From the NCBI RefSeq assembly GCF_004010195.1, contig NC_057718.1:84443586-84475581 (forward strand): a stretch of DNA of 31,996 nt, in the 5' to 3' direction. Positions 188-31,996 of this stretch are shown piece after piece (the stretch's first letter is position 1; every line of letters begins with the position of its first letter). The stretch is from Chiloscyllium plagiosum. Lineage: Eukaryota. Made by a program: the position numbers and the translations under genes. The notes beneath the pieces are model-generated. The model ran no database searches and was not told the origin of the DNA. It worked only from the letters and a program-made list of their open reading frames with translations.

Positions 188-3100
188 GTAGGTTTGTCTT
201 AAACCCTTAACAGATAAAGTCACAATTGTTTTTAAATGATTGAAACTCCTCATATGGTAGACTGACAATTTGTAAGTCATCGTAACTTATGTCTTTTATT
301 TAGAGCGTGTCGCCTTATGCTAAATTTTCATTGAATGAAAAATAATGACTGAATTACAGTCTGGACCAAATTCTAATGGAAGAGACAAACCTTGAAAGGT
401 GTTGCATCTTCGTCTTATTTATTATTTTGATCTTGTGTTCAATCCTGCTGTGTCAATCCCCATGTCTTTTTTTTTCCAGGATGTTCTGTATACTGTCTGC
501 AATGCATGTGGTCCAGTCCTCCGTATTGTCATCTTCAAGAAGAATGGAATACAGGCTCTGGTTGAATATCTTTTTGCAATAGGGGAAATGCACTGTCCCA
601 GTGTGCAACATCCATTGGCTTTGACTTCCAATTGATGATCACGTTTTAGAACACTTTTTTTTATTTTGCTACAGGATTGTTTATGGGTTTTTAAACCTGT
701 AGTGTGTTCAAGTAGTTGCTTTACAGTATCATTAACTATTTAGTCACCAATACGTTTATGATCACAAATGTATTTCAATGAATGAGTGAGGATAATGCAG
801 CTGATGCGGTTACTTGGGATTCCAGGAAACCTTTGATAAAGTACCATGTAGCAGTCTTGTAAGCAGATGTAAACCCTTGAAGTAAGAGACTGTGGTAGTA
901 TGGTTGAGAAGTTGATTTCAAGACCAAGAAACAGTAGGGGTGAGTATGCTTATTTCAGGTTAGGGGACCATATAAAGTGGAGTTTCTAAGGAGTCTTATT
1001 CAGACCATGTCTTTTCCTGTTCTCTAAATAATTTGACCATGAGTATGCAGGACACAATTTCAAAATTTGCTGATTCCACAAGATTTGGAAGTACTGTGAA
1101 GAAGAGAATGATAGAAATTAAGAGGTATTTAGAGTTGGTGGTTGGAGTGAGTGGTATATTCTGGTAGAAAGAGCGAGGAGAGGCAGTATAAAAGATTATT
1201 GCACAAACCTTTGAAGTTGACAGTGTAGGTTGAGAAAATCGCATATGAATATCTATCAGAATGATCCTGAGCTTCAGGAGAAATTTGATTGAGATGCTGA
1301 AAATCATGAGGGGTCCAGATTGAGTAGATCTTATTATTCACTTATAAAATGTAGACATCACTGGCTGTGTTAGCATTTATTGCCCAGAAGACAGTTAAAA
1401 GTCAACCACATTGGTATGGGTTTGCACTCGCCTGTAGACTATTAGGTAAGGACATGAGTGAGCAACTATTCTCATTGGTTTCAGAGCCACCATGCCCAAT
1501 TACAATAGCGTAAGAATGAAATTTTGAGAAGAGAAAACGTTTTCAAGAGTGTATAAGGTCTGGGATGCGCTGCCTGAGAAAACAGAATCCATTTGTGGCT
1601 TTTAAAAGTGAATTGATTAATTACCTGAAGAGAGAATGTGTGGAGCTGTAAGGTTGTGGGATTGGAAGATGTGCTGTTGCAGTAAGTGGGCATGGACCTT
1701 GCATCCAAATAAGCTCATCCAGTGCTCAAAAATGGATATAAAACATTTATTGACACCACTAGGTGAAGAGAAGGGGCGTTAAGTCTACCCCTCAACCAGC
1801 ATCACCAAAGCCATTTATATGATGTGTTGACTCATTGCTGCTTGAGATTGTTGCTCGACAGGTTTGTTATTAAGTTTCCTATATTACTGTGGTGACTATG
1901 AATCTGATGTACTCCATGGATGTAAAGTTAATTTGGATATTTTGAGGTTTTGAAAGCTGCATATAAGAGCATGGCATGAGTAGGCCTTTCAGTTTCTTGA
2001 CCATGCCCCAGTATTCATTCAAATTGTGGCTATTCATCTACCTGGGCTGCACCTTTCTAATATATACCTATAAACCTCAATTTCTTTAGGGGCCAAAATC
2101 ATATTGATCTTATGTTGAATGTTTGAATCAACTGGACATCCACAACCCTTGGATGGACAACTCCTTCTAGTAATTTAAATTCTTCTCAGCACTGAATGGT
2201 CAACCACTTATGTTGAGTTCAAGCCTTCTAGGAGAAAGTGAGGACTGCAGATGCTGGAGATCAGAGCTGAAAATGTGTTGCTGGAAAAGCGCAGCAGGTC
2301 AGGCAGCATCCAAGGAGCAGGAGAATCGACGTTTTGGACATGAGCCCTTCTTCAGGAATGAGGCTCATGCCCAAAACGTCGATTTCCCCTGCTCCTTGGA
2401 TGCTGTCTGACCTGCTGCGCTTTTCCAGCAACACCTTTTCAGTTCAAGTCTTCTACCTTGGGAAGATGGAAACATTTTTGCATACCGACTTTCAACTCAA
2501 GATGGAGGGACTGGATTGAAAAAGAACCTTTTATCCACATTCATAGGACAGAAATGGGTATGGCCATGACTGTTGTTTGTTAATATTTACTTACTAAAGT
2601 CACTGTTCGCTCCTTAACATTTTTCACATTTGATTCAGTCCAAAGTGCCCAGAAGGCAAAGGCCTCTCTGAATGGTGCAGACATTTATTCTGGTTGCTGC
2701 ACTCTCAAAATTGAATATGCCAAGGTAATCTTAAAATGGTTCATTTTCTGAATGAGAATTCAATTCTTGCTTTTCACACACTAAAACAAGAAGGTGTTCT
2801 TTCAATTCACCAGCCTACTCGACTGAACGTATTCAAGAATGATAGCGAATCCTGGGACTACACTAATCCCGATTTAACTGCTCGAGGTATGGTGTACCCT
2901 CATTATTTGTGTCAGCTTTTTAGATTTTGTTTGCACATGATGCATCCTGTTACCATGTTAGACCTCCAGCAACAAACCTCCATTTTGCCTCAAGTCCAGG
3001 AATAGTGACAGAAATCTCTCTTTAACTTAGCAACAGGGCATGTGCTAAAATAAGAATCTGTCATATAGAATGGCCTTAAAAATTATACAATCTATTGTAC

Positions 3101-6100
3101 CATGTTCAAACACTATTTGGTTTGCACTCATAACATTGACTAACTTCTATCTGTTTTAATTAGCAGTCGAGGATTCACATTTGTCTTTTAAAATTGTGGG
3201 GTTTTTTGCCTAATGGACATGGGAAAATTGGCCTTTAAATAAGGGGTGATGACAAATGGTTCTTAATATTCTGAACTGTTGAAGGGTGCAATTTAGACTG
3301 AGTTCGTTCTAATTTATGTCTTCCCAGTGGAAATCAGACACAGTTAATAGCATAAACTATATATTTCTTCTGAATTAATTGACTTGTACCAGGCATTGGT
3401 ATTTTTACTATATTACAACAGTTACTGTATTTCAAAAAGTGTTAATTGGCTGTAAAAGCTTAGACATTCTGAGATTGTGAAAGACATGATAGATTAATTG
3501 GTCTTTGTGTAAAAGCTGGTCATTCTCTCTTGTGGAATCAAAGCCTTGAGAGTTACTGGTTTCAGAAGAGAGCTGGAAATATAGGGAGTCCTTCAGTGCA
3601 ACCATGTGTGACCTGAGTGATGCAGATTGTTAGAACGGCTCTGTGATTCAAATTGAGTTGTCCAACTCTTGTATAAAAAATGAAGGGTATCTTAAATTGG
3701 GGGTGTGTGGGAGGGGTCTTTATTGGCTTGACTTCATATTTAAGCTTTTAGCGATGCAGCACTCACGTTCTGTAATTTTGTAGCCTTAAAAAAGAAAGCC
3801 AAATCCTCATTTCACAGTACAGCTTTAGTTTGGTTTAAATTCTTGCTACATTTGTCAAAGTAATCCAACCCAGATTATGAACTAATCAAGAGATTTAAAT
3901 ATTTTTTATTAAAGGAGGCTTGAGAAATGAAGAACATACTAAACAAGTTAGCTATCCATTAGCTTTTTGCCAAGAAGTGAAATTTGATGCATTCATTTTA
4001 TGGAATTGAAGAGAGTTTTTTTTAAAAATGGTTCCTGCTGTTGTTGCATAATCATTTCCTAACTATTGTAACCACTTTGATGCTTGATGGTTTGTATATT
4101 TTTGCAGCAATTGCTGGTAGTCTAACATTTTTGGAAAGAATATTATTCAGGTTTAGCTGCCTGTGTTGACCTGCACTGTCCTCTGCTGGATGTTTTGAAG
4201 TTCACTTGCAACACTTGTTATAGCACTGTGTAGCTGCAACTCACCTACATGAACTGTACATGCAAACAAGGCTACGGCACAGAAAATCGCAGATTTCAAA
4301 GTCGCACGCAATACTCAAGAACATTTCACTCAGAGGGGAAAGAGAGAGAACCAAGACTTCAGTTACAGAAATACTAAATCTTCAAAGCTACATTCACCTT
4401 CTGCAGATTAATATCTTCACTGTTGGAAGGATATTGATCCTTTTTCCCCCCCTCCCTTCTGGAGCAAGACATTTTCTCAGGTACACCAGCGAAAGTGACA
4501 CCACAGAGAGAAGAGGGGCAAGCCAGGCAAACTAATCAATTCATGCACCTCTCCAACGAATGCCAGCATTTCGCAGTTACAAATGACAACAATCCAGCCT
4601 TCAGAAACAGAACAGACTCTCAATAAATCTCAGATCACCCAGACTGCATGCAAACACATCCTCAGGAAACTTGATCAGGAAGGACACTTTTCTTTTCTCC
4701 CCATTCATCGGTGCACAGAGGATATGTTTGCAAAGTTTCATCGTAAGACTGAAATGAAATTCTATTTGAATGCATTTAATGCTGTGAAATAAATTATTTA
4801 AGGAAAAAGCTGCTCTTGTAAGTTTTTGTTGATGAGAAGAAGTCCACTTAATGACTGTTTGTTTGCTTTTTAATTCTTGTGGAGACTTCTGAGTTTCAGT
4901 TCAAGATTGAAGTAACTTGAGCTTTTTGACAAATCCAGGAACCACTGTATGCTTGCTAGATGGAGGGCTATAAGAATTACCAGGGAATTTTTTGTTTATA
5001 ATAGCCATATGCTATTAATGGTAAAATTTCTGTAGTGCATTCAGTGAGATAATGATCACTTGGTATTGTCATTTTTAAATTGGCACATTCCCAGTGTGCC
5101 CTTTTGTTACTAATACATGCTTTTAAGACCTAAAATATCAGCGGTGTAAGATGTTTCGAAAGCTTGTTTTCACTTGCTTTACAACTAAATGAAGCCCTTG
5201 TCTTCCTGTGACTTTGTAGATATCACTTTTGACTAAGTGAGGCGACCATTGATTTGTCAAGTCCTACTGCAGAAACTTGAGTCCATTTTGCAGGTTGACA
5301 TTTTCACTGCAGTAGAAACAGAATGCTGCACTGTCGGGTGTGCTGTTTTTGAGATATAAGAGATGTTTAATTGAGATCCCGCGTGCTCTGTCCAGAAAAT
5401 GTATAAGCACTTATTTCATTAGCAGTTTATTAAGTGCAGGGAAGTTTCCATGACTTCATCCAACCCTGAGAAACCGGTTATTTTGCCACTTCCATAGGGC
5501 AGTTTGGGATTTTGCTGCCTTGTTTTTCTGTGTAAGTCACTATGCTTCAAAAGGTAGATCATTGGCTATAATGCACTTTCAGCCATCCCAAGTTTATTTA
5601 GCAAGGTTATATAAATGTCATCTTCATAAAGCATCACAAGATGTTTACAAACTGGAAATGCTTTACTTTAAAAATAATTAAACCTTAATTCAATTAAGTC
5701 CAATTTGAACATCTGGCTAATACTACATTTAGACGTTAATGAGGAAATAGCAAATTTTATTTAAGCCAGGAATTGTGCAGTTCTTTAAGATTCAATAGAG
5801 TCTGTTGATGAAATTGAACTAACTCAAAATATGAGTATATCTTCTAATTGTTAAGCATGACATGTTTCAGTATCCTTGGGGTTAGGCTATAAAATAGGGA
5901 GGAGGAGAAGAAACTGATGAGGGCAGTTACTGTATCAACTGCCAACACTAGATGGATATTTAGATTGTGGTACTGAAAAGTAAATTGGTGCATGCCCATA
6001 AAGCCCTCTCCTTCTCATACTGTTATGCTTTCTCCTCTGTCTGTTTACAATTGTGTTCTACTGGCTTCCATATTTGAATGTCAAAGCAGAGATATGTGGG

Positions 6101-9100
6101 ATTCCCCTTAAAATGGAAAGCAAAAATAACAGCTAGCGCAAGAAAGATATCTTCATTCTCATCATAAGCTGGCCCTTTTTTTGTCATTATGGCAATGTGT
6201 TTATAATTGTCTTGATCAAATTCATTGTAGTTTTGTATCAATAATTGATTTGAGAATATAACTGGTTACTGTAATTCTTGATGGACCTTTCAGTACTCTG
6301 TTTTCAACCTAACTTCTGGCCATAAAATGCATTGGAAATGACAATCTGCCAAAATTGCTGAGTATTTGTAAGCATGATACTTACAGTTAATTCCAAAAAA
6401 GCAGAGTTTTTTTTAGATCTTAAAAGTTGTAGAAATGTCAGAAATGCCTGTTTCGGTTTATTCTTACTCCATCTTTGCACAACATTCGATTTGTTTCTGG
6501 ATTTGTGATCAAGCTTTGTTGGTTGACCATATCCATACATTAAAATAAATGGCTTTAGCTTCAAAGCCAAAATACTTGTTCAATATTCTGTTCTGTTATT
6601 ACCCATCTAACTCGGCAAAGAAACCACTCCTAACATGTCTGCTGACTGAGGCAAATTTCTATATAGAATGAGGTATTTGTAAAACGTTAAAACCATTGGA
6701 TTTGCCCAACCAACTATTCTGATTTTTATTTTACCACATGTAAAGTTTTTTTTTAAAATTATGTATGTTTACCTTTTAAAACCCTGTATTTACTGATTAT
6801 AAAACTGTAATGCAGGGGCGAAGCATCTCGCTTTTGCTGAATCCTCCTGCAAGTTATTAAGAAGGCCGTTTTGAAACTGCTGTATCTTGCTGTTTGAAGC
6901 TTATGGTACAAAAGAACAGGTACTGTTTTTTCAAAATTGTATTTTTATCAATTGTAAAATGCATTGTGCAAGTGTTTTTTGACTTTCTGTATAATGTGTT
7001 CATGAAAAGTGCAATTTTTGTTTTTAAATAAATACTGTACAGGGGAACCTAAGTACTGAATCTCAGTACTGTACTTGCATGATTATGCAAGCATTTGCAA
7101 ATCACTTAATTTCTGTTCCTTTCTTTAATTCCAGATGAAAGAAGGCGACAAGGACAGCCAGCCCTTCTAGGAGATCACCCTTCAACATATGGGGGTAATC
7201 AGCAGTTCTAATAAAATATTTCAGGACTCTTCTCTTTATATTCACTAACCCTAGTATTGTAACCATAGACTGATATTCACTTCGTCTTATTGAAAAAAAG
7301 GCTTGCTTTCATGGTCATCTGTTAAGCAAAGTGAAAATTCTTTCTTTTGAGCCTTTATTTGAAAGCATAGGAGAATATTTTGCATTTTTTGAATTTTCCT
7401 TTGCCATTGCAGAAACTCTCTTATTACTGAACCTGCGTCTGCCTTGCAGTATTGCCTGTAGGTTCCACAGGAAGAGGAACTTGCATGATTTGGGAGCACA
7501 ATGTGACCAGTTGAACAATTGTTCTAGTGCCATCTTTTCAAAAGAACTATCCAAATTATCCCATTCTCTTGCTCTTTATCCAAATCTCTACAAAGTTTCC
7601 CCATCAAACATCTATTCAGTTGTTTTTTCTTGAAAGTTATCAAATCTGCTTCAACTGCCTCCTCGAAGTAAATTGTAGATTTGTTATTATTTACTGGCAA
7701 GACAGTGCTTTCTTACCAATGAGTCTTTATTATCTTAAATTTCTGCCCACTTTTTACGAATCCTGCAATGGTAACAGTTTCTCCTCATCTTCCCTTTTAA
7801 CATCTGTTTTAAACAGAGCAACTCGGTTTTCTATAGTCACTCAAAATAACTGAAGTGTTTTGTACATAGGCTTGAAACCACACTTTTTTGGAAGAGTGTC
7901 TGGAATTGACAAACCACTCCAACTAGAGCAGAATTATTATTTCATGTAAAGGTTTCCTTATTTTTATGCAGACTCCATAAGTCTAACAATCTTCTATACC
8001 TTTTAAGCAGCTGTCTCAACTTAGACCAAAAGACACAGGAGCAGATATTAGGCCATTCAGCCCATCGAATCTGCTTCACTATTCAATCATGTGTGATAAG
8101 TTTCTCAACCCTGTTCTCCTGCTTTCTCCCTGTAACCCTTGCTTCCCTTGATACTGAAGAACCTATCTATCTCAGTCTTTAATACATTCAATGACCTGGT
8201 CTCCACAGCCTCCTGTGACAACGAATTCCATAGTTTCACCACTCTGTGGCTGAAGAAGTTTCTCATCTCCATTCTAAAACATCTTTACTCTAAGGCTGTA
8301 CCCCGTAGTCCTAGTCTCTCCTACCATTGGAAGCATCTTCCCAACATCTACTCTGTCCAGGCCATTCAGTATTCTGTATGTTTCAATTAGATCTTCCCCA
8401 TTTCCTTCTAAACTCCATTGAGTATAGGCCCAGAGTCCTCAAACGTTCCTCGTATGTCAAACATTTCATTCCTGGGACCATTCTCATGAACCTCCTGAAT
8501 ACGCTCCAAGGTCAGTACATCCTTCTTGAGATATGGGGCCCAAAACTGTGCATAATATTCCAAACGTGATCTGACCAGAGCATTATAGAGCCTCAGAAGT
8601 ACATCCCTGCTTTTGTGTTCAAGTCCTCTTAAAATAAATGCCAAAGTTTACTTTGAGAGAATCCAAACTCAAACTCCAAGTCTCTTTGCACTTCAGTCTT
8701 CTGAATTTTCTCCCCATTTAGAAAACAGTCCATGCCTCTTTCTACCAAAGTGAATGAGCTCACTCTTCCCCATATTGTACTCCATCTACCACTTTTTTGC
8801 CCACTCTCCTAACCTGTTCAAATCCTTCTGCACTCTCTCTCTGCCTCCTCAATGCTACCTGCCCCTCTACTTTGTACCATCTGCAAACTTAGCTAGAATG
8901 TCCTCAGTTCGGTCATCTAGATCCTTAACGCATAAAGTGAAAATTTGTGGTCCCAACACTGAGCCTTGCAGAACACCACTTGTCACCGGCTGCCACCCTG
9001 AGAAAGACCCTTTGTCCCCACTCTCTGCTTTCTGCCAGGCAACCAAGCTTTAATCCATGCTAACACCTTGTCTCTGACATAATGGGCCCTTATCTTAGTC

Positions 9101-12100
9101 TGTAGCTTCCTGTGCGGCACCTCGTCAAAGATCATCTTGAAATCCAGGTAAATAACATCCATTGGCTCTCCCTGGTCTAACCTGCTCGTTACTTGCTCAA
9201 AGAATTCTCATAGATTTGTCATAAATGACTTCTACTTTATGAAATCGTGCTGACCCTGCCCTATTTTATCATAACTTACAACTGTCTTGTACCTGCACCC
9301 TGTGTCTGTATCTTACCAGTTTGTGCTTCTCATTCCCCTCTCTTTTCAACTACTCCTCATTCCCCTCTCTTTTCAACTACTCCTCATTCTAATGCAGTTT
9401 GTTTCTGCCGACCCTCTGTGGGACCTGCATTTATGTTTGGTGTCCCTTGGCCTGGTTCTTTTGGCTTTGCTTCGTAAATAAATTGAGCACAGCCACAGCA
9501 GATATAAATTTGGTGTTTTAGTTCACATGTTTATCAAGAAGCTTTTCCATCTTTCAAAAAGCTTTCATATTATAATTGTCATCTAGAATAGACCTTTGAG
9601 TTGTAACAGCTTTCCTATTCTCACTTCCACTGCTTCCCGGCTCTTCGAGAAGAAATACCACCCCAACATCACAGATTGACTTGTAATTTTTGTCAAAAAA
9701 ACTTTGAATTATCAAAGTAATAAATGAAATATCATGATGAAAGCCAATGAGGGTACATGGGTGTGTTGCTGTAGGGTCATATGCCATGTTTTTGAAGGGG
9801 AGGAGACCAATATGATAAAGAAAAACATATTCACTGATATGTAAAGATTACAGTCAAAAGGAAAGAGATGAAAAGGCAGAAAGTCAGTCATTAAGCTGGC
9901 TGTTACACTTAAATATTTACTTACTCTAATTGTGGTTACATGTATAGATTTGGAAGGAAATACATCTTGATGACAATAAGACATTTCTTCATGTCAAGGC
10001 CATGGGATAGAACTAGTTGGAAAAGATGGACATGAACAGTTTGTCTTTGAAGTTTGGTGTATTCAGAAATTAAAAATAACAACCAACGGTACTAACATTT
10101 CACCAATTTTTTTTTTGAATGAAGCTTGTCCTTAAATGAAAGATGCTTTTCAGAAATCTATTTATTTATTTCTGGTATTATATCTGTGCATAATTACTTT
10201 ACAAATTTGACATAAAAGATAATTTTACCAATCTTTGAACAGGATATCAAACAAGCCCATTGGCATTAGCACATAGAATGGATCCACGCTCTTCCAGCAG
10301 TAGACCGATGCATCTCTACTCTGCTCCTGACTTTGAATTTGTGCCTCAGGGCAAGGTTATAATGGTTTATGGACTTAATCCGCATAAAATGAATTGTGAA
10401 AAAATCTTCAATCTTCTGTGCCTCTATGGCAATATTGAAAAAGTAAGACTTAAATTGTTTCTGTTTTGGTCTTGATTTGTAATGCTTACTTGCCTTTATT
10501 GTTGAATTTTAAGCTTGTCTGAATTGAATTTTTTACAATAGCTCTAAACTCCAGAATCAAAATGTACAGACTTGATGCCATACTTTAGAAACAGTCTGGG
10601 ATTGACATACCATTCAAACTGCAGCAGAACTATAATTTCACGTAAAGATTTCTTTATTTTTATACCCTAACTTCATGAAGCTAAACATCTGTATGGGCCT
10701 GATTTGTCAGTAATTGATTTGAGATGCTAAATTATAAAAACTTTTCCACCTGAACCTGCAAGAACCTCTTTTAAACAAGGTTTTATTCCTTCTACGAACT
10801 GAAGAATATTGGTACCAAGCCATCCAAGCTGGGGTGAAAACCACAGCCAAATAGAAAATTTAATTTGTAATATTTTAAAAATAACTTTTTTTTTGTAAGA
10901 TACTGTGCTACAGAATGTGGCTGCCTTTTAAAGAAATTTCCAGTCTTTATAAATGATCTGTTGATCTTAGGTCAAGTTCATGAAGAGTATGCCTGATGCT
11001 GCTATGGTTGAAATGGGAGATGAATTTTCTGTGGAGCGAGCAATCACCCATCTGAACGGTGTGGAGATGTTTGGAAAGAAACTTAATTTGTGGTAGGCAG
11101 TTTTCTTTGTTAAAAAATGCTTTCACATTTGTAGAGAATTCTCAGTTCAGTTTTTGTGATGTGGGTAGTCCCTGTAACTACTGTGCTGCTTCAGTGTCTC
11201 TAAACAGGCATCAATTGTGCCAAGCCAATCATATGAGTTGGTGGATGGTACTGATAGTTACAAGGAGTTCACCAATTCGAGGAATAACCGCTTCACTAAT
11301 CCTGGGCAGGCAGCCAAAAATAGGATCCAGCCTCCTTCCAACGTACTTCACTTCTTCAATGCTCCACCTTGTGTTACAGAGGAAATCTTTCAAGAGGTAA
11401 GATGCCTAATGCAAGTGAAATAGTAAGACTTCCATTATTCCCATATTAGAAGTTAAGACTGGGGAATTGAATTATATAGCAGAGAAACCGGCCCTTTGCC
11501 CCACCAACTAACAAACATCAAACTACACCACTCTCATTTAGGTGCACTTAGTCCATAGCCTCCTATGCCCCTGCATTTTAAGTACTCATCCAGATGTTTC
11601 ATAAATGTTGTGAGACTACTTACCTCCACCACCCTTTTAGGCAGCATGTTCCATATGTCTGCCACCCTCTGTGTGACTTTTGTTTTTCTCTTAGATGTCA
11701 TCTAACTCACTACTGCTCATCTTAAACATGCCCTCCAGTCTTACAAAGTTGTAACAATTTTCTTGCCCCAGCTAATGAAAGCAATCCTTTCATATGCTGC
11801 CTTCACCCTGTCTACCTGTAGTGACACCTTCAGGAATCTATGGACTTGTACAGCAAGTTCTTTTGTTCCTCATTACCCCCTAGGGGCCTGCTATTCATTT
11901 GTATATGTTGTTCCCTTATTATGCATCACCTCTCACTATTAGGATTAAATTCCATCTGCCATTGCTCTGCCCAAGTTACCAGCTGATCAATATCAGACTA
12001 ACCTGGGACTATCCTCCATATCAACAGTGTCATCTGCAGACTTGCTAATTAAACCTTCTACATCAACTTTCAAGCTGTTAATGTGCATAACAGCAAGGGC

Positions 12101-15100
12101 CGTAGCACCGATCCCCATGGTACTGCTGATCACAGCCCTCTACCATCAATCTTTTCCTCCTATTTGTAAGGCAATTTTGGATTCAGTTTGCCAATGTCTT
12201 GGATCCCATGGGTTCCTGACTTTTGACCAGCCTTCCATGTCAGACCTTGTAAATACCTTACTGGCGTCAATGTAAACCACGTCCACTGTACCACCTTCAC
12301 CATTTCAAAATTAAATGAAGAAATAAATTTATATTAGACAGAATCTCCTTCTAACAAATCAGTGTTGACTATCTTTGATCAATCCCTGCCTTTATCTAGT
12401 ATTGATTTAATCCTGTTCTTCAAAACTTCTTCCAATAAATTCTCAACTGCTGATATCAAACCAACTAGTCCTATCCTTGCTGTCCTCTTTGAACAAAGGA
12501 ACCACATTATCTATCTTCCAGTCATCTGGCATGTCACCTGTGGCCAGGGCAGTGTTACACACCTCTGCCAGGGCCCCAGCAATCTCCCCTCTTGCTTCCC
12601 TATCAGCCTGGGATACATACCATCTGGTTCTGGGGATTTATGCATCTGTATGCCCACTAAAATGTCTTAGTGTATCATCCTTATTAATCGTAATGTGTAC
12701 AAGAACTTCATCCCAGCTGATATTCCTGGCTACTAGGTGTTTCAGTGAATATGAATGAAAAACATTCATTTAAGACTTCACCCATGTCAGCTGGCTCCAT
12801 GCACAGGTTGCTACTTTAGTCTCTTACAGTTCTCAGTCTTTCCATGGTAATCGTCTTACTCTTAAAATACTTTAAGAAAAGCCTTGGTTTTCCTTGATCC
12901 CATCTGCCAAAGGTATTTTGCCCTCCTACTTTCCTTTTTAAACAACATCCTACACCCTATGTTTGAAGGGCCTCCCCTGTTTTACTGTGCTGTACCTGGC
13001 ATATCATCTTTCTCTAATATCCCTTGACACCCAAGATCCCTTGAACTTAGTTCCCTTGTCCTTTGCTCTTAGAGGAATATGCTGGCCCTGAATTCTCCTA
13101 CTTTAAAAGACTCCTACTTTCCAAAAATAGACTTATCTGCAAGTAATTCTCCTAGTCTGTTTGCTAAATCTTGTCTAATGATGTTAAAATCAACCTTCTC
13201 TAATTTATACACTTAACTTCTGCATTATCTTTATCCCCTTAAGAATTAAGAATTCAGTCACTATCCCTAAAATGCTTGCCCACTGGCACTTTAACCATTT
13301 GACTGGTTTCACTGTTTGGGATTCTGTCCAGCACTACCCTCTCCCTAGTAGGATAATCTACGTACTGGCACAAAATGCTCTCCTGGATGCATTTTAGTTC
13401 TTTCACTAAGGTAATCCCAGTAAATGTTGGTAAAATTGAGATGCCCTACAACAGTAGAGTCATAGAGATGTACAGCATGGAAACAGACCCTTTGGTCCAA
13501 CCTGTCCATGCCGATCAGATATCTCAACCCAATCTAGTCCCACCTGCCAGCACCCGGCCCATATCCCTCCAAACCCTTCCTATTCGCATACCCATCCAAA
13601 TGCCTCTGAAATGTTGTAATTGTACCAGCATATTGCAGTGATGGTTTCCTATGAATACAAGAATGCCCCACTGTTCTTCTTGCTGTCCCTGTCGTTATTC
13701 TCTCTTTTCCCCCCCCCCACCCAAAGAATAAAATGTTGTCTGAAATTTCTATACCCTGGCACATTGAGCTAGAAGTCTCACCCTTCCTTCATGTCTCTCT
13801 GTTTGCAACAGTATCATACTCACATATAGAGTGATCATGTCTCTTCCTGATGATTCTTGGTTCTGTATAAACTGTCCAGTTTTGGATAGCCAATCAGTTC
13901 TCCTCCAGTATGGCAATTGTACGACATGAAATGGAGTTTCCTCGCTGTCTTATCTGTAGAGACTGTGCATCATACCAATGCTGTTATATCTATGGCAATA
14001 TGGACAGATTCAAATAGGTTACACCCTCATGCTAGTTTCCTTACAAGTAGTTTGGTTTAGTGACTACTGAGCAATCCTTGGTCACTTGTATAAAATTCAT
14101 AATTTTGCATCCATTAGGAATGCTTCACAATTAGTTGTAATGCACTGAGATGATTGCCTCACTATTATAAAATCATTCATGCTTTCTTTAGCATTTAATG
14201 TAAATCGTTCTATGTCTCACCTAGGTTTGTGAAGATTGTGAACTGAAACCTTTTAGAACTTTCAAGACATTTACTGGAAAATGTAAGTAGACAATTGAAA
14301 ACTCAAGTCATAATTGTGCTATTCTATATTTTTAATCTCTACTTTTTTATGGAAACTTAATTTATTTGTGATAAATATTTTTAAATGATTTGAGATTTGA
14401 TCATGCTTTGAACATTGTGAAACCTTTTCAAAACAGATGTGATTTATGCAATTTCCATTTCGAATAATTGAAATCTAGCTTCAGCTATTCATTACCTTCA
14501 ATCTGAGCATTACACCATTGCTTCCCAAAACTTTTCTCATTCTCCCATTTTGCTGCTTGAAAATTTTAATGATTCCAGACTTGTGACACTGAATGGGGAG
14601 GGGTAAGAGACCTGTGGCAGCGGGGATGGGTAGAGTATGTATCCGAAGGTATGAGAAATCTGTGACAGTGGAAAAAGGGTTGAGATAGGGAGGTAAGGAG
14701 AGGGCTAGACGTGGGAGAGTGGAGAACTGTTTAACTGACAACTTCTTAAAGTAAAATGTGCCTACCTTTCCAATGATTTTTTTTCTAGATCAGTTTCAGG
14801 TGTGCCAGATTAGTCTTTTGGGCCAGGCCCACTGTTAGAAATGCAAGATTTAAAGGAGACCCACAGCTGTTAGCACTTAGTTGGAGCTCCATGGCAGCTG
14901 CTGGAGTTCACAACCTTTAGTTTGGGAAGCCTTGATCATAAAAATCACACCTTCAGTTTGATTAAGTGTCATAACTTAGAATAATATAACATTTGAATTG
15001 AAGCCATTTGAATCTGTGTTAGCTTTACTTTCAAGAGTAATCTGATTAGTCTCACTTTCCCATAGTTCCTGCAATTAGTTCTTGCAATACTTCCTTGCTA

Positions 15101-18100: not shown

Positions 18101-20632
18101 AAGTGTGTATGTTGGGTGTAATGGAGGAACAACACAATCTTTAAAACTAGAAGAGTGGAGAGTTGCAATCTAAAAGTGTAAGGCAGGGGTTTTAGATGTA
18201 GCAAAGCTTCATTGACTAGAATTAAAAAGCTGAACAATTGGAGTAGTGGATAGTGAACTTAGTGCACTGAGAGATGCAGGCTCTTGAAGTTCATTCAGGG
18301 TTGCTGTTTAGAAAGCCAGTCTTAATAAAGAAAAAGCATGAGTCAAAGTAGAGACCGGGAAATTGTTGAAGTGGGCTTGGTGATTGTCTTTTTGTGTATG
18401 GGTTCTTGGACAACACTTTTTAAGTTCACGATTAGAATATGAAAGGGAGATTTGTGAAGTCAGCATGGGTGTCTTAAAGTTTGGGAATTCTGTTTTGTAT
18501 TAAATATCTTCAGCCTTGTTTGTTAATCTGCGCTTAGGGTAGCTTGACGACAGACATGAGGATAAGCTTGCGTCCATTGCATGGTAACACTTGAGTCCGA
18601 ACAGTCATTTCTGAGACATCACACTGACATTCTTTCTAGTTTTGTTTTAATTGAATGTGTAGTAATCTGGTAGTCTACTTGTTAGATGACTTTTGGTAAT
18701 CTGTCTCTTTTCTAGCTGATAGGAGTTTATCTGGCCTTTTGGAATGGGAGACGAAAAGTGATGCCGTGGAAGCGCTGACTGTCCTGAATCACTACCAGAT
18801 GAAAAACACAAGTAAGTGTTCTATAAGTGGGATGGTGAAAGCTTAAAAGGTTCAATTTGTGTAATAGGTAAGGATTATCTTAACCTCCCAGAGCCTAAGC
18901 TAGAAATGGATATGAAAATTTGTCCAATTGTGTAAATTCAAATTTGTCAATCTGTTAGGTAATGTGGGAAACTTGAGGGAAGTGCTGTACAGCTGTGACT
19001 GTGACTAGATTACTCACATTGACTTTAGTGAGAAATTTTATCCTGTTGTTGCTTTCAGCAATAACTTGTTTGATTTGTTGCGTGCAAATCCTACAGAATG
19101 AGTAGCAGAGTGACTATTTGACAGTTTCCTTAATCTTTGGGGAAGGGAAAAAAGCCATAAACCATGTTCATCTGTGTCATGATTATATAGCCATGATCTA
19201 AACCAGTACTAAGTACTGCACATGCTTGAAATCTGAATACAGATGATGTTGGAAAAACACTGGAAGTGGGGGAAAAATTAATGTTTTGGGTCTTTTGTCA
19301 GAACATGAAACATTAATTCTTGTCACATTTCTTTCTACAGAAGCTGATGCTGCCAGACCTATTCAGCATTTTCATCTTTTATTTAGAATATGAGAGTAGT
19401 TATGGTATGATGAGGTGGATAATTCTAGCAACTCAGTGCAGCTGGATTTATATCTTTTAAATTGAGAAGACCAGCAAAAATGCATGTGCTGCAATAAGCA
19501 TGTTGTGTGTGTGTGTATTCAAATAAGATATTTATTTCCATACACCTTTTGTATATGCAGCACAAATTAACAAATGATAAAATTTATGACTTGAGATTCA
19601 AATACATCTATCATTCTTAGGAGTTCTTGTTTATATGGGAAATGAGAGATTATAAGCCTAGTTAAACGTTAACTCTCATGAGAGAGGAAAAAATGCAAGT
19701 CACTGCATCAATAGGAAAGGGCCAAAAAGCTGAATCCTCATTTTACAGAGTTAATTGGGGTAAATTACTGTACATGATTTAACACATTTTAGAATGGGAG
19801 AGTGCTGCATCAATAAGGAAGGCAGGAATGGCTGACTTTGAGCAATACTTGAAATACCCTGGATGACAACAAATAATATGTGTAATAATCCGATTCACTG
19901 CTACATTATCACTAAGAATGTCTATCAGACAGAAATTATTTCACTTTAGACTTGAACAAAAGTTTTTTATTGAACAGATTCATATGTTGGGAATATTTGA
20001 TTGCACATTCAGGCCAGTGTGTCTTACTGATTTATGGATTATAGCAGCTTTTTGAATTGATCGAATTGAATTTTATAGGGATTTCTGGTAGTGTAGTTAT
20101 GAATGGCAGAACTTGGTTGACAATTTTGTCAAAGATGGTAATGATTTAAATGAAATTAAAATGTGATGGGTTTTTTTCTTGAAAGAAAACATTCTGATAA
20201 TGGGTCAGTGTTCTCAAATTCAAACAACTTTCTTTTCTAATTAGATTAGATTACTTAACAGTGTGGAAACAGAACAGAATTGTTTTTTGATTGTGGTATG
20301 CCCACACATTTGGTGGAGTAGCTTTTGTGACAAAATTATTTAATCATGCAATTTGCCAGCTGAAAAATGTATCTTGCGTAACACTTATGGAACAAGCATT
20401 TTTCAATGAGTTGTAATGAGCAAATAGCAAATTAATTTTAGTCCCCAAATTGCAAATTAGTAGTGGGGTATTCTACACATAATGACTTTTACTTTGTAGT
20501 GCTATTTAAAATATGTTTTAACTTCTGTTTTCAGTTATGTGACATTAAGCCAAGAATGTTTTTTTTTAATTTTTAGATGGCCCATATCCTTACACCTTGA
20601 AACTCTGCTTTTCCACCATGTCCCATGCATGA
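1..20632 (+). CDS. Heterogeneous nuclear ribonucleoprotein L-like gene (hnRNP L / hnRNP LL family), 5'-partial; join(<1..187,480..565,2628..2724,2814..2886,7135..7194,10243..10442,10971..11092,11195..11396,14225..14282,18716..18811,20577..20632)
   Basis: Hand-spliced exons give one open frame of 411 aa with family motifs: IAGHPAFFNFSTSQRITRP, NPLYPITTDVLYTVCN, SLNGADIYSGCCTLKIEYAKPTRLNVFKND, CLYGNIEKVKFMKS, SRNNRFT...AAKNRIQPPSNVLHFFNAP, SGLLEWE, PYTLKLCFST. Symbol left blank because L versus LL orthology is ambiguous. Confidence 0.96.
480..565 (+). CDS. hnRNP L-like exon (RRM2, 86 nt)
   Basis: Pyrimidine tract plus CCAG acceptor ending at 479; DVLYTVCNACGPVLRIVIFKKNGIQALV-E; ends GTTGA|ATATCTTT (U12-type AT donor). 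Confidence 0.93.
800..1720 (+). mobile_element. Highly decayed CR1-type LINE fragment (RT and 3' region), apparently interrupted by a short SINE-like remnant at ~1345-1480
   Basis: Frameshifted remains of the D.VYLDF.KAFDKVPH motif (~804-848) and KFADS/DT (~1062-1080). Confidence 0.6.
2231..2440 (-). mobile_element. Short fold-back insertion derived from a Penelope-like element terminus
   Basis: ~80-bp inverted arms (2267-2346 and 2362-2442); flanking 15-bp duplication AGTTCAAGYCTTCTA (2216-2230 and 2441-2455); similar to the termini at 24189 and 27952. Confidence 0.8.
2628..2724 (+). CDS. hnRNP L-like exon (RRM2, 97 nt)
   Basis: FDSVQSAQKAKASLNGADIYSGCCTLKIEYAK; donor AAG|GTAATC at 2725. 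Confidence 0.95.
2814..2886 (+). CDS. hnRNP L-like exon (RRM2 C-terminal extension, 73 nt)
   Basis: Acceptor CAG at 2811-2813; PTRLNVFKNDSESWDYTNPDLTAR; donor GAG|GTATGG at 2887. Confidence 0.95.
4240..4742 (+). promoter_or_regulatory. CA-rich intronic block with candidate poison (NMD) cassette exon
   Basis: Composition shifts from T-rich to C/A-rich with many ACA/CAC/ACAT/TACA motifs; pyrimidine tract plus AG at 4479-4480 and at 4717-4720; donor ATC|GTAAGA at 4743. Same intron position as the autoregulatory exon of mammalian HNRNPL. Confidence 0.55.
5270..5630 (+). mobile_element. Ancient SINE remnant resembling Deu-domain SINEs, with an L2-type tail
   Basis: ...TGCAGTAG...ATGCTGCACTGTCGGGTGTGCTGTTTTTGAGAT... 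resembles the Deu core as I recall it; tail CATTGGCTATAATGCACTTT...TATATAAATG. Similar tails at ~1840-1965 and ~3400-3505. Confidence 0.5.
7135..7194 (+). CDS. hnRNP L-like exon (RRM2-RRM3 linker, 60 nt)
   Basis: Pyrimidine tract plus CCAG ending at 7134; DERRRQGQPALLGDHPSTYG, matching the family LLGD/EHP motif; donor GGG|GTAATC at 7195; phase 1 at both ends. Confidence 0.9.
8022..9265 (-). mobile_element. CR1-type LINE, 3' part of ORF2 plus 3' UTR (truncated)
   Basis: Minus-strand ORF 8408-8644 LLRLYNALVRSRLEYYAQFWAPYLKKD..LERIQ; QGSVLGP-like motif at ~8950-8970. Confidence 0.88.
9329..9389. repeat. Tandem duplication of a 27-bp unit (about 2.3 copies)
   Basis: CTCATTCCCCTCTCTTTTCAACTACTC is identical at 9329-9355 and 9356-9382. 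Confidence 0.9.
10243..10442 (+). CDS. hnRNP L-like exon (linker and RRM3 start, 200 nt)
   Basis: Acceptor AACAG ending at 10242; GYQTSPLALAHRMD...VIMVYGLNPHKMNCEKIFNLLCLYGNIEK; donor AAA|GTAAGA at 10443. Confidence 0.9.
10971..11092 (+). CDS. hnRNP L-like exon (RRM3, 122 nt)
   Basis: Acceptor CTTAG ending at 10970; VKFMKSMPDAAMVEMGDEFSVERAITHLNGVEMFGKKLNL-C; donor TG|GTAGGC at 11093. Confidence 0.95.
11195..11396 (+). CDS. hnRNP L-like exon (RRM3 end to RRM4 start, 202 nt)
   Basis: Acceptor TTCAG ending at 11194; VSKQASIVPSQSYELVDGTDSYKEFTNSRNNRFTNPGQAAKNRIQPPSNVLHFFNAPPCVTEEIFQE; donor GAG|GTAAGA at 11397. Confidence 0.95.
11470..13800 (-). mobile_element. Old, degraded CR1-type LINE ORF2 remnant
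   Basis: CR1 3'-end-like sequence at ~11470-11700; minus-strand VVGHLNFTNIYWD (endonuclease GDFN-like motif) near 13410-13450; many stops and frameshifts. Confidence 0.65.
13455..13630 (-). mobile_element. Younger CR1-type 3'-end copy nested in the older LINE
   Basis: Closely matches the reverse complement of 29760-29937 (TITTF.RHLDGY.NRKGL.G; ATGACTCT tail). Confidence 0.85.
14225..14282 (+). CDS. hnRNP L-like exon (RRM4, 58 nt)
   Basis: Acceptor CCTAG ending at 14224; VCEDCELKPFRTFKTFTGK-S; donor AAT|GTAAGT at 14283; phases fit both neighbouring exons. Confidence 0.88.
15270..17690 (-). mobile_element. Degraded non-LTR retrotransposon (CR1/L2-group) remnant
   Basis: Reverse-complement similarity to the LINE at 24870-25845; no intact ORF. 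Confidence 0.55.
16182..16269. mobile_element. Tiny Penelope-terminus-derived hairpin insertion
   Basis: Perfect 26-bp inverted repeat 16206-16231 / 16241-16266; 11-bp direct repeat GCCCATTAACT at 16171-16181 and 16270-16280; same sequence family as 2231-2440. Confidence 0.85.
18716..18811 (+). CDS. hnRNP L-like exon (RRM4, 96 nt)
   Basis: Acceptor TTTTCTAG ending at 18715; DRSLSGLLEWETKSDAVEALTVLNHYQMKNT; donor CAA|GTAAGT at 18812. Confidence 0.95.
20577..20632 (+). CDS. hnRNP L-like last coding exon
   Basis: Acceptor TTTTTAG ending at 20576; NGPYPYTLKLCFSTMSHA followed by TGA at 20630-20632. Confidence 0.95.
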
Positions 20633-25845: not shown

Positions 25846-26969
25846 ATCACTAAACATCTCAAAATACATAATTAGCAATAAAGTAATTTATTTGTGAGGA
25901 TGCTATATAAAATACAATGTCTTTTATTCATAAAGCAAGTAACTGCAAATACTGGAGATCTGGAACCAAAAGCAGCAATTCACTTTTGAACAAAGGTCAC
26001 TGGATTTGAAACATTAACTCTGCTTTCTCTCCACGGAAGTTGCCAGACCTACTGAGTTTCTCCAATATAATTTTTCATTTCTAAATTTTGTCAAACCATG
26101 AGATTGCACAAACCACCACCTTTAAGCTGAACCTGATCTATCTTATTAACTCATACATCTGCATATGTCAGTGATCTATACATAGAGTCATAGAGATGTA
26201 TTACATAGAAACAGACTCTTCAGTACAACTCATCCATGCTGACCAGAGATCCTAACAACCTAGTTAAAAATCACACAACACCAGGTTAGAGTCCAACAGG
26301 TTTATTTGGAAGCCTTCATTGGTTATTTGGTACCCTTCGTTGTCCAGTACTTTCCGGGAGTCACAATTCTATGCAATGTTCTTCACAGCCCGCAACACAT
26401 TACTGATGAGGATGAGCATCTCTCCAAAATCTTTCCTACACCTCCGCTTCTTGCCTTTAAACAACCCCCAAACCTTAAACAGACGATTCTTTGCAGCAAA
26501 CTGCCCAGCCTTCAGGACAACATCGACCATAACACCATACAACCCTGTCATGGCGACCATTGCAAGGTGTGTCAGAGTGTTGACACATATCGCCATTACT
26601 CATGGGGATATGACCACCGTGTACACAACAGGTACTGGTGTCTCGGCTAACATTGTCTATCTCATATGCTGCAGGCAAGGATTCCCTGAGACATGGTACA
26701 TTGGTGAGACCAAGCAGACGCTACGATAACAGGTGAATGGACACCACACAACAAACAGACAGAGGTGTTTCCTCCCAATCGGGAAGCACTTCAGCGGTCA
26801 GGGACATTCGGTCTTGGAACTTTGGGTGACCATTCTCCAAGGTGGACTTTGAGATAGGCAACAACTCAAAATGCTCGAGTAAAGGCTGATAGCCAATTTT
26901 GATACCCATGGGATGGCCTCAACCAGAGTCTTGGGTTCATGTCATGCTACAGGTGACCCCACTGCACTA

Positions 26970-27225
26970 TACACTCTCTCTCTCTCTCACACACGCACAC
27001 ACTCTTGCATACTCACACACTCACGCAGACTCTCTCCCATACACATACTGTCTCTCATACGCACACACATATACTGTACACCCCCCACACTCACACCCAC
27101 GCACACACCCTCTCACAGGCTTCTACTCCATCACACCCACATGCATACTTTACCAAGATTTCACACACGCAAACACACACTCGCTCACACTCGCTCTCTC
27201 TCTCTCTCATGCACACTCACACACA
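26970..27225. repeat. Degenerate (CA)n/(CT)n low-complexity tract within the Penelope-like element
   Basis: Seen directly; it produces the spurious His/Thr-rich ORFs in the track. Confidence 0.85.
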
Positions 27226-27634
27226 TGTTTTTGGGGTGAATTTGAATTTTCAAAATTATACTTGCAGATACATTCTATTTTTCTCAAAAAATGCACAAAC
27301 CGGAGGCAGTCAATGCGGGCTGTCAATCCATGTAATATTTTGTAAATTCCACTGTGGAAATAGAACTGGTCTGACTTAAGATTGGGATACAGACAGACAA
27401 TGACCTCATGCCTTTAATGCATTCTCTGAGCTGAGATGTCACCTTTTGTTATAAATCCTTAAGTCATCTTGAGAAGGTGACTTCAAAGAAGTTCTGGATT
27501 TACATATTAATGAATTGAAACCTACTCATTATAAAAGATGAAAGACTTAACGATCCAGGTTTGTTCCATATATTATTTCAGTTGCTTGACACTGTAATCT
27601 TTTGCTATAAATTCTGTCTTATCTTCTACTCCAC

Positions 27635-31167: not shown

Positions 31168-31233
31168 GAGTCATAGAGATGTACAACTCATCCAGGTCGA
31201 CAAGATATCCTAAATTATTCTAGTTCCATTTGC
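31168..31233 (-). mobile_element. CR1-type 3' tail fragment
   Basis: GAGTCATAGAGATGTAC...AACTCATCCA matches the tails at 13455 and 26181. Confidence 0.7.
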
Positions 31234-31996
31234 AGGCCACCCGACCAAGGAATGTAAGGAGGCCAAGAACTGTAATCTGTGCGGAGAGGCGGGCCACATG
31301 TACAAGGCCTGCCCAAGACGAGGGGCCGCCACCTACGCACAGATGGCGGGAGGTGGCAACACGAGCTGTGGACCGCCTAAGACCAGCAAGGTACCACAAA
31401 ACAGCACGGGAATGGTGTCAGGAGGTACCCAGAAGGAAGGGCAGGCTGTAGCGGAGCAGACGGCAGACAGCGGGGAGATGCAGCAGCCGATGGCAGACAG
31501 CGGGGAGATGCAGCAGCCGATCCAAGCTCCTTCAGGACAGATGGAGGAAATGGAAGGGAAGGGATCAAAGGAGGCAGAGGATTGGATTACTGTCAAAAGC
31601 AGGAAGAGGAAACCTCCCAAAGCCACCCAGCGAGGGGGGAAACGACACCTACACGACGAGGATACAGGCAGCTCATCTGACGGTGAGGAGGGTCATCACC
31701 AGAGGAAGAGACAGAGCGCCGCGGGGAAAAAGGAGTGCAGCACCGCCCAAACAGGAAAAGACGATCCCTCTGAGGGGATGGGTAAAGGCTTCCCCCCACC
31801 CGGTGAGAACCAAGAGGTACCCACCGCCCCACAGCTCCAGGTAACTGGGAGCAGCGGTCCTGTGACAGCCCCGCTGTCAGATGGAGAACTGGACTATGCG
31901 GACCCTGGGCCCGACCCGAAGACACCAGAGCGGGGAAATGGCTTCAGCGTGGAGCCGGACAGCTACCTCAGCCCTGGGAGGGTCCAGCAGTTTGCC
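31232..31996 (+). mobile_element. Zinc-knuckle (CCHC) ORF1 C-terminal part of an L1/Tx1-type retrotransposon (ZCCHC3-like), open to the window end
   Basis: Stop-free 255-codon frame absent from the ORF track: AGHPTKECKEAKNCNLCGEAGHMYKACPRRGAATYAQ...EDWITVKSRKRK...; CX2CX4HX4C at 31271-31312; abrupt GC/CpG rise. Confidence 0.78.
31462..31521 (+). repeat. In-frame 30-bp tandem duplication
   Basis: GGCAGACAGCGGGGAGATGCAGCAGCCGAT twice (ADSGEMQQP twice). Confidence 0.9.

Follow-up and report, generated by a model that had tools for sequence, protein, structure and literature searches.

A stop-carrying cassette exon and a distant CA-rich island in one intron of a cartilaginous-fish HNRNPLL gene

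Does the CA-rich island in an intron of an hnRNP L-family gene of Chiloscyllium plagiosum belong to a poison-exon circuit, and which exon would such a circuit use? To our knowledge, the core mechanism has been known since 2009, and Rossbach et al. (2009) are said to have described cross-regulation of the human hnRNP LL poison exon by hnRNP L. For human LL, passages in PMC7764535 and PMC11062102 describe a poison exon that responds to nonsense-mediated decay (NMD) and for which hnRNP L promotes inclusion. In human HNRNPL, a CA cluster next to exon 6A in intron 6 is linked to autoregulation in parts of PMC7547044, PMC7764535 and PMC6547761, and Table 1 of the last gives exon 6a as 70 nt long and rising on loss of UPF1 and SMG6. 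The stretch of DNA analysed here, the window, is 31,996 nt long. The first-pass annotation of this window had proposed a feedback switch, autoregulatory and possibly cross-regulatory among paralogues, in which an island of about 500 nt itself ends in a poison exon or microexon.

The window carries most of one hnRNP L-family gene on the forward strand. In the gene model (exons 2-187, 480-565, 2628-2724, 2814-2886, 7135-7194, 10243-10442, 10971-11092, 11195-11396, 14225-14282, 18716-18811 and 20577 onward) the reading frame stays open to the usual C-terminus. Among named proteins, the closest is the hnRNP L-like protein of a skate (96% across one exon), and the cluster to which that protein belongs bears only shark and ray names in the 15 of its 16 members that are listed. 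In a midpoint-rooted tree of 45 hand-picked proteins, 15 of them bony-vertebrate LL rows, plus the partial window protein, the window, skate and chimaera proteins together form the sister group of bony-vertebrate hnRNP LL (support 99/98; the LL stem is long), which places the window protein with vertebrate LL and not with L. When the genome was searched with a segment of coelacanth LL, the top match was the window locus (65%), ahead of two hnRNP L loci on another contig, C41 (60% and 54%); counts from this search (3 matches of 7 candidates) are lower bounds, and no second LL locus was found among the at least 3 matches. A GALM-type gene (aldose epimerase exons, contig C9, opposite strand) lies about 52 kb upstream, head to head with the window gene, and is the one neighbour that the synteny comparison covered; a table in PMC9412053 shows GALM adjoining HNRNPLL in chicken. 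Because of the tree grouping, the coelacanth match and the GALM neighbour, the window gene is the HNRNPLL orthologue of cartilaginous fishes. The same three lines of evidence disfavour its being a third ohnologue.

The island lies in the intron that follows the sixth coding exon, as numbered by the HNRNPL paralogue.

2814-2886, forward strand: constitutive exon ending RRM2 (PTRLN...WDYT...LTAR), from contig joints 2724>2814 and 2886>7135, translation and exon order
2887-7134, forward strand: GT-AG intron of 4248 nt holding the island and the poison exon, from the skip joint 2886>7135
7135-7194, forward strand: constitutive exon (DERRRQGQPALLGDHPSTYG), from joints, loose ends and orthologue proteins

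Four runs with the same species label were mapped on 2550-7350, namely two raw single-cell runs of one sample (X19, with 9 mapped reads, and X20, with 0) and two contig sets (X1 and X17). The RNA status of the contigs is guessed or unrecorded; they carry GT-AG joints and therefore include spliced RNA. The skip joint 2886>7135 is present in one read of X19 and at depths of 36.5 in X1 and 52.9 in X17. Within 2550-7350 the contigs also cover the intron, at a depth of 9-28 as against 36-146 at spliced joints, which could reflect pre-mRNA, retention or DNA. Further upstream, intron 566-2627 is of the U12 AT-AC type, with ATATCTTT at its 5′ end, the branch site TCCTTAAC and AC at its 3′ end. Loose ends of contigs connect 565 to 2628 across it, and an AT-AC intron occupies the matching place in both hnRNP L genes on C41. 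A U12 intron of HNRNPLL is mentioned in a passage of PMC8329584.

Only one CA cluster is found in intron 2887-7134.

4240-4742, forward strand: CA-rich island, from composition, shuffles and a single genome match

Its 503 nt contain 65 CA dinucleotides, or 12.9 per 100 nt versus 6.0 in the remaining intron, and its A+C content is 0.60 versus 0.455. The densest core, 4481-4690, reaches 15.7 CA per 100 nt. When scored with the SELEX set for hnRNP L given in the part of PMC3384337 that deals with it (CACA and ACAC high-score, TACA and CACC low-score), the island holds 20 motifs (8 high-score and 12 low-score), versus 25 in the other 3746 nt. Shuffles of the intron at three block sizes matched the A+C content or the CA count in 0 of 300 cases each, and the motif count in 4, 0 and 0 of 300; among all 503-nt windows in 1-21500, the island ranks first for A+C, for CA and for motifs. 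The CA excess survives control for the island's own base composition (0 of 2000 shuffles as high); the four-letter motifs are not above that composition (matched in 270 of 2000 shuffles when all four are counted, and in 1010 of 2000 when the count is limited to the high-score pair). CA is also mildly over-represented in the remaining intron, with an observed/expected ratio of 1.27, compared with 1.46 in the island. The CA-rich island of about 500 nt that had been claimed from the letters is thus borne out, and its CA richness is beyond chance. Read from its sequence, the island is likely a putative binding platform for hnRNP L or LL, distant from the poison exon described below.

A genome search with 4200-4850 returned one match only, which speaks against the transposon fragment that had been named as a possibility, in a search that can miss old or very common repeats. 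No tandem repeat was reported in intron 2887-7134, no Rfam family scored above cut-off, and the island does not fold better than its shuffles (z -0.22). A match to U6atac at 6071-6181, below the Rfam cut-off with an E-value of 0.22, is taken as chance. A 15-nt inverted repeat (4649-4663 with 4718-4732, 93% complementary) could form a hairpin that would span the candidate acceptors at 4719 and 4721. Words of 2600-7300, a region of which exons make up 7%, occur in runs from two other organisms at shares of 0.15-0.53, a measure that carries no positions.

The cassette exon that is spliced in this intron lies 2.07 kb downstream of the island.

6816-6919, forward strand: highly probable poison cassette exon of 104 nt, frameshifting, homologue of exon 6A, from joints, frame and homology to both hnRNP L genes on C41
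6872-6874, forward strand: premature TGA, in frame by frame reading, predicted NMD trigger
6791-6815, forward strand: weak acceptor of this exon (9 of 20 pyrimidines), conserved in the paralogues by alignment

Both contig sets use it: joint 2886>6816 has a depth of 29.2 in X17, and joint 6919>7135 has depths of 10.6 in X1 and 35.1 in X17, so that X17 shows both joints and X1 the downstream one. Crude estimates from word depths put its inclusion at roughly 23% and 38%. Raw reads over the exon number 0, among 9 mapped reads in X19 and 0 in X20. The TGA lies 45 nt from the exon end and 105 nt from the next junction, and six further junctions follow downstream. A stop codon that precedes a later junction by more than 50-55 nt marks an mRNA for NMD; because its TGA sits 105 nt before the next junction, exon 6816-6919 is a predicted NMD target. 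TACTGAT at 6791-6797 is presumably its branch site. We identify 6816-6919 as a poison exon with high confidence. The earlier proposal of a poison exon in this intron with a feedback circuit therefore stands as to the hnRNP L family, the intron and the stop-containing cassette, and falls as to the exon, which is 6816-6919 and none of those ending at 4742; nor is the island itself the exon or its neighbour, being intronic sequence upstream of it.

Homology to the paralogues provides further evidence for this exon. Contig C41 harbors two tandem hnRNP L genes (C41:11750659-11817743, L004-L010), a canonical HNRNPL and a divergent copy. Among the proteins compared, the closest to the divergent copy comes from a sevengill shark, and a chimaera fragment resembles the same copy, which is possibly a duplicate specific to cartilaginous fishes.

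C41:11810001-11810962: HNRNPL, CA cluster of about 830 nt (24 high-score motifs) followed by a predicted stop exon of 67 nt whose donor is GTG/GTAAGA, from sequence
C41:11770239-11770338: divergent copy, predicted 100-nt stop exon, from sequence

When the window intron is compared by blastn with its HNRNPL counterpart, the top hit falls on the acceptor of exon 6816-6919 (25 of 28 nt, E 0.004). Local alignment of the sequence around the exon, over regions picked after that hit, outscores 200 of 200 shuffles against each of the paralogues. A blind scan with 41 intron windows gives its highest scores, against either paralogue and at the expected positions, to those of the exon: 39 and 38 against HNRNPL, where the reverse-strand control reaches at most 27, and 31.5 against the divergent copy, a marginal value as the control reaches 30. 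A three-way alignment of the exon elements has a mean column identity of 70%, and each of the two paralogue elements (67 and 100 nt, predicted exons) contains an in-frame stop and lies less than 300 nt before the next exon. Homology to exon 6A is judged by the HNRNPL element of this genome; for the human exon, the comparison is by its 70-nt length only. The poison exon of the hnRNP L family thus appears as one homologous element that can still be aligned among three paralogues of a single cartilaginous-fish genome; it is therefore older than the L/LL duplication, and jawed vertebrates have retained it ever since. Compared with the C41 paralogues, the donor of the window exon appears shifted 14 nt downstream; the used donor is at 6920, whereas the donors of the paralogues align with 6906 (ATG/GTACAA). 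The alignment suggests a donor shift in the window gene that preserved the stop.

The placement of CA-rich sequence differs among these genes. In the HNRNPL gene of this genome, the CA cluster ends about 65 nt before the predicted exon, a textbook layout as in human HNRNPL intron 6. The divergent copy shows a weak enrichment upstream of its predicted exon (7.4 CA per 100 nt over 800 nt). The CA cluster of the window gene does not immediately precede the poison exon, the 500 nt directly before 6816 having CA at background. The resemblance to human HNRNPL intron 6 consists of the same intron, a homologous exon near its 3′ end and a similar CA density, and the island also compares well in density with the HNRNPL cluster on C41 (12.9 versus 11.9 CA per 100 nt). 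Unlike in the HNRNPL layout, the island is shorter (about 500 nt), has fewer high-score motifs (1.6 versus 2.9 per 100 nt), lies 2.07 kb away and is followed by a poly(A) signal. Nor can it be aligned with the HNRNPL cluster (its alignment score is reached by 65 of 200 shuffles, and the blind scan is at background) or with the second paralogue, to which local alignments and the blind scan revealed no homology.

The reading that we favour, with modest confidence, couples exon 6816-6919 as a predicted NMD exon to the island 2 kb upstream as a likely hnRNP L/LL site that promotes the exon. The exon enters mRNA, and its in-frame TGA would send that mRNA to decay. hnRNP L (or LL) would bind the island, and the bound island would raise the use of the weak 6816 acceptor over 2.07 kb. 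High hnRNP L would then lower LL, as in human cells. The known cross-regulation of LL by hnRNP L through NMD is most likely what operates in the window gene. For an LL gene, the better-documented model is cross-regulation by hnRNP L, ahead of pure autoregulation; of the two modes proposed in the first-pass annotation, this favours the one offered as a possibility. Support comes from a CA cluster upstream of a spliced stop exon, both in the intron after the RRM2-ending exon. With the human hnRNP LL circuit the locus shares an orthologous gene, a stop-carrying cassette exon after the RRM2-ending exon and a CA-rich intron element; in contrast to the human case, the window gene is known from its sequence and contig joints. 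In a literature search with subscription journals and supplements outside its scope, we found no account of this exon, or of the poly(A) site discussed below, in cartilaginous fishes; Rossbach 2009 may show fish alignments.

The main doubts about the role of the island in this reading are its distance of 2.07 kb, its lower motif density and a general rule, stated in the review PMC7547044, that a cassette exon is usually repressed by CA-rich elements in the intron upstream of it. The geometry differs from that of HNRNPL, where the cluster abuts the exon, and among the 25 inverted pairs listed out of 42, none provides a convincing pairing that would join island to exon. An arrangement in which a CA cluster abuts the exon in HNRNPL and lies 2 kb off in LL offers a natural test of the reach of a CA enhancer.

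The alternative that survives best is that the island mainly controls a poly(A) site behind it, the poison exon 6816-6919 being a separate control.

4788-4793, forward strand: AATAAA hexamer, 45 nt after the unused donor 4743, from sequence
4803-4808, forward strand: candidate intronic poly(A) site, with genomic A5 at 4804-4808, from poly(A) loose ends of three X19 reads behind 4808

These three reads, representing 1-3 molecules of one sample, end in poly(A) behind 4808, where the genomic A5 makes internal priming possible. All intronic read depth of X19 falls in 4321-4964; summed over bins, it comes to about 708 read bases, a total consistent with three tailed reads and three full mates. Of the ten tracts of five or more A in 2550-7350, the one at 4804-4808 is alone in having a hexamer within 40 nt upstream; the nine others drew no reads, although three of them have more A in 10 nt. 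The canonical hexamer precedes the run of A by 10 nt, and the sequence beyond that run is U/GU-rich. A stronger U1 match, CTT/GTAAGT (8 of 11), begins at 4818, 10 nt after the candidate site, and shows no use. A table in PMC5546720 lists hnRNP L as swaying splicing versus intronic polyadenylation. An RNA ending near 4803-4808 would retain the intron's 5′ part, and its product would be RRM1-2 followed by 39 further residues (stop at 3003); such transcripts would escape junction-dependent NMD, and U1 at the unused donor 4743 could keep the poly(A) site in check. Against this reading, a single sample supplied the 1-3 molecules, which make up about 2% of one run, and the sister run gave 0 reads; 7 of 10 nt where the site ends are A, including a genomic A5, so that oligo-dT could have primed on pre-mRNA; contig depth, which is flat by construction, has no step at 4808; and the HNRNPL cluster has no hexamer inside it or just after. 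We consider this control unlikely.

In its evolutionary form, this alternative holds that in cartilaginous-fish hnRNP LL the CA cluster parted from the ancient poison exon and came to drive a poly(A) switch in the intron immediately behind it. The one intron would then combine an NMD exon that antedates the L/LL split with an NMD-independent early 3′ end that would yield a truncated LL with two RRMs; we regard this, too, as doubtful. If the poly(A) site is real and responsive to hnRNP L, it would be a second output of the circuit. For L-family genes we found no description of a CA-controlled poly(A) output, in a literature search that had subscription journals and supplements outside its scope.

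It is also improbable that the island is neutral, or serves some unrelated purpose (it might be a decayed and now unique insert), and that exon 6816-6919 alone matters under the control of nearby elements. Such neutrality would agree with the lack of likeness to the paralogue clusters, with motif counts that composition accounts for and with the 2 kb that separate the island from the exon. However, the island is the strongest CA window of the gene, stands in the very intron where HNRNPL has its cluster and equals that cluster in CA density; and an insert is at odds with the one genome match, the lack of a tandem repeat and the lack of an Rfam family above cut-off, within a search that may miss old or common repeats.

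In a further reading, 4481-4808 (with its acceptor at 4481, a stop at 4624 and AATAAA at 4788) is a CA-rich cryptic last exon that is normally repressed by hnRNP L and seen only when hnRNP L is low. hnRNP L represses CA-rich cryptic last exons, and on its knock-down in rat cells last exons made up 62.9% of 70 released cryptic events (PMC5974433). The window resembles those cases in having a CA-rich stretch before an AATAAA with poly(A) reads; the CA-densest part begins at the acceptor, and the reads would give the 3′ end. In contrast, the known targets of hnRNP L in intronic polyadenylation and cryptic last exons are other genes and mostly non-conserved, whereas this case concerns an L-family gene and three reads. 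No joint is seen at 4481. Our own arithmetic on the X19 bin depths leaves about 97 read bases 5′ of 4482, which means molecules unspliced at 4719/4721 and at least one read that crosses the acceptor at 4481 unspliced. No protein with that tail was found among proteins of 84-2000 aa, and such an exon would lower LL when L is low, opposite to the compensation reported in mammals. This reading is very improbable.

The exons originally proposed, which end at 4742, fare worst.

4481-4742, forward strand: candidate exons with acceptors 4481, 4719 and 4721 and donor 4743, letters present and no use seen

The letters are as described: the acceptor ...TTTTCTCAG ends at 4480, the donor ATC/GTAAGA is at 4743, a 262-nt exon from 4481 would stop at the TAA at 4624-4626, 4719-4742 preserves the frame and 4721-4742 brings the TGA at 7136-7138 into frame. 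What did not stand is the use of these splice sites. Joints from 2886 to 4481, 4719 or 4721 and from 4742 to 7135 had been predicted for RNA-seq; in the four runs mapped on 2550-7350, none occurs at 4481, 4719, 4721 or 4743, with the qualification that contigs drop rare forms, and joints at 6816 and 6919 are seen instead. Contigs span the island unbroken (3760-6173 in X1 and 2858-6843 in X17). The frames of the island have no protein relatives at E 10 or better among 53 candidates (proteins of 84-2000 aa), the 97-residue frame 4499-4789 has 0 matches among 1.84 billion, and 0 of the 19 orthologue proteins that cover this junction (20 were examined, one too short) carry an insert. Low use of these sites is possible. 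That cassette exons of 262, 24 or 22 nt ending at donor 4743 are regulated poison or micro-exons is scarcely credible: the splice sites exist and the frames work, acceptor 4719 has 14 of 20 pyrimidines, donor 4743 matches U1 at 6 of 11 positions, similar to two real donors of the gene, and NMD targets may be too rare to enter contigs, but two of the four runs without a joint plainly show another poison exon, the insert is missing from the orthologue proteins (19 of 19), the exons are not homologous to exon 6A, and a weak alignment with the region of the HNRNPL exon, which 4 of 200 shuffles equalled in one of six tests, vanished in the blind scan.

Beyond the end of the gene, the window contains two long open frames. 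The frame at 31214-31996 resembles what we take to be retroelement ORF1-type sequence with CCHC motifs, and that at 26264-27376 presumably includes a (CA)n-like simple repeat.
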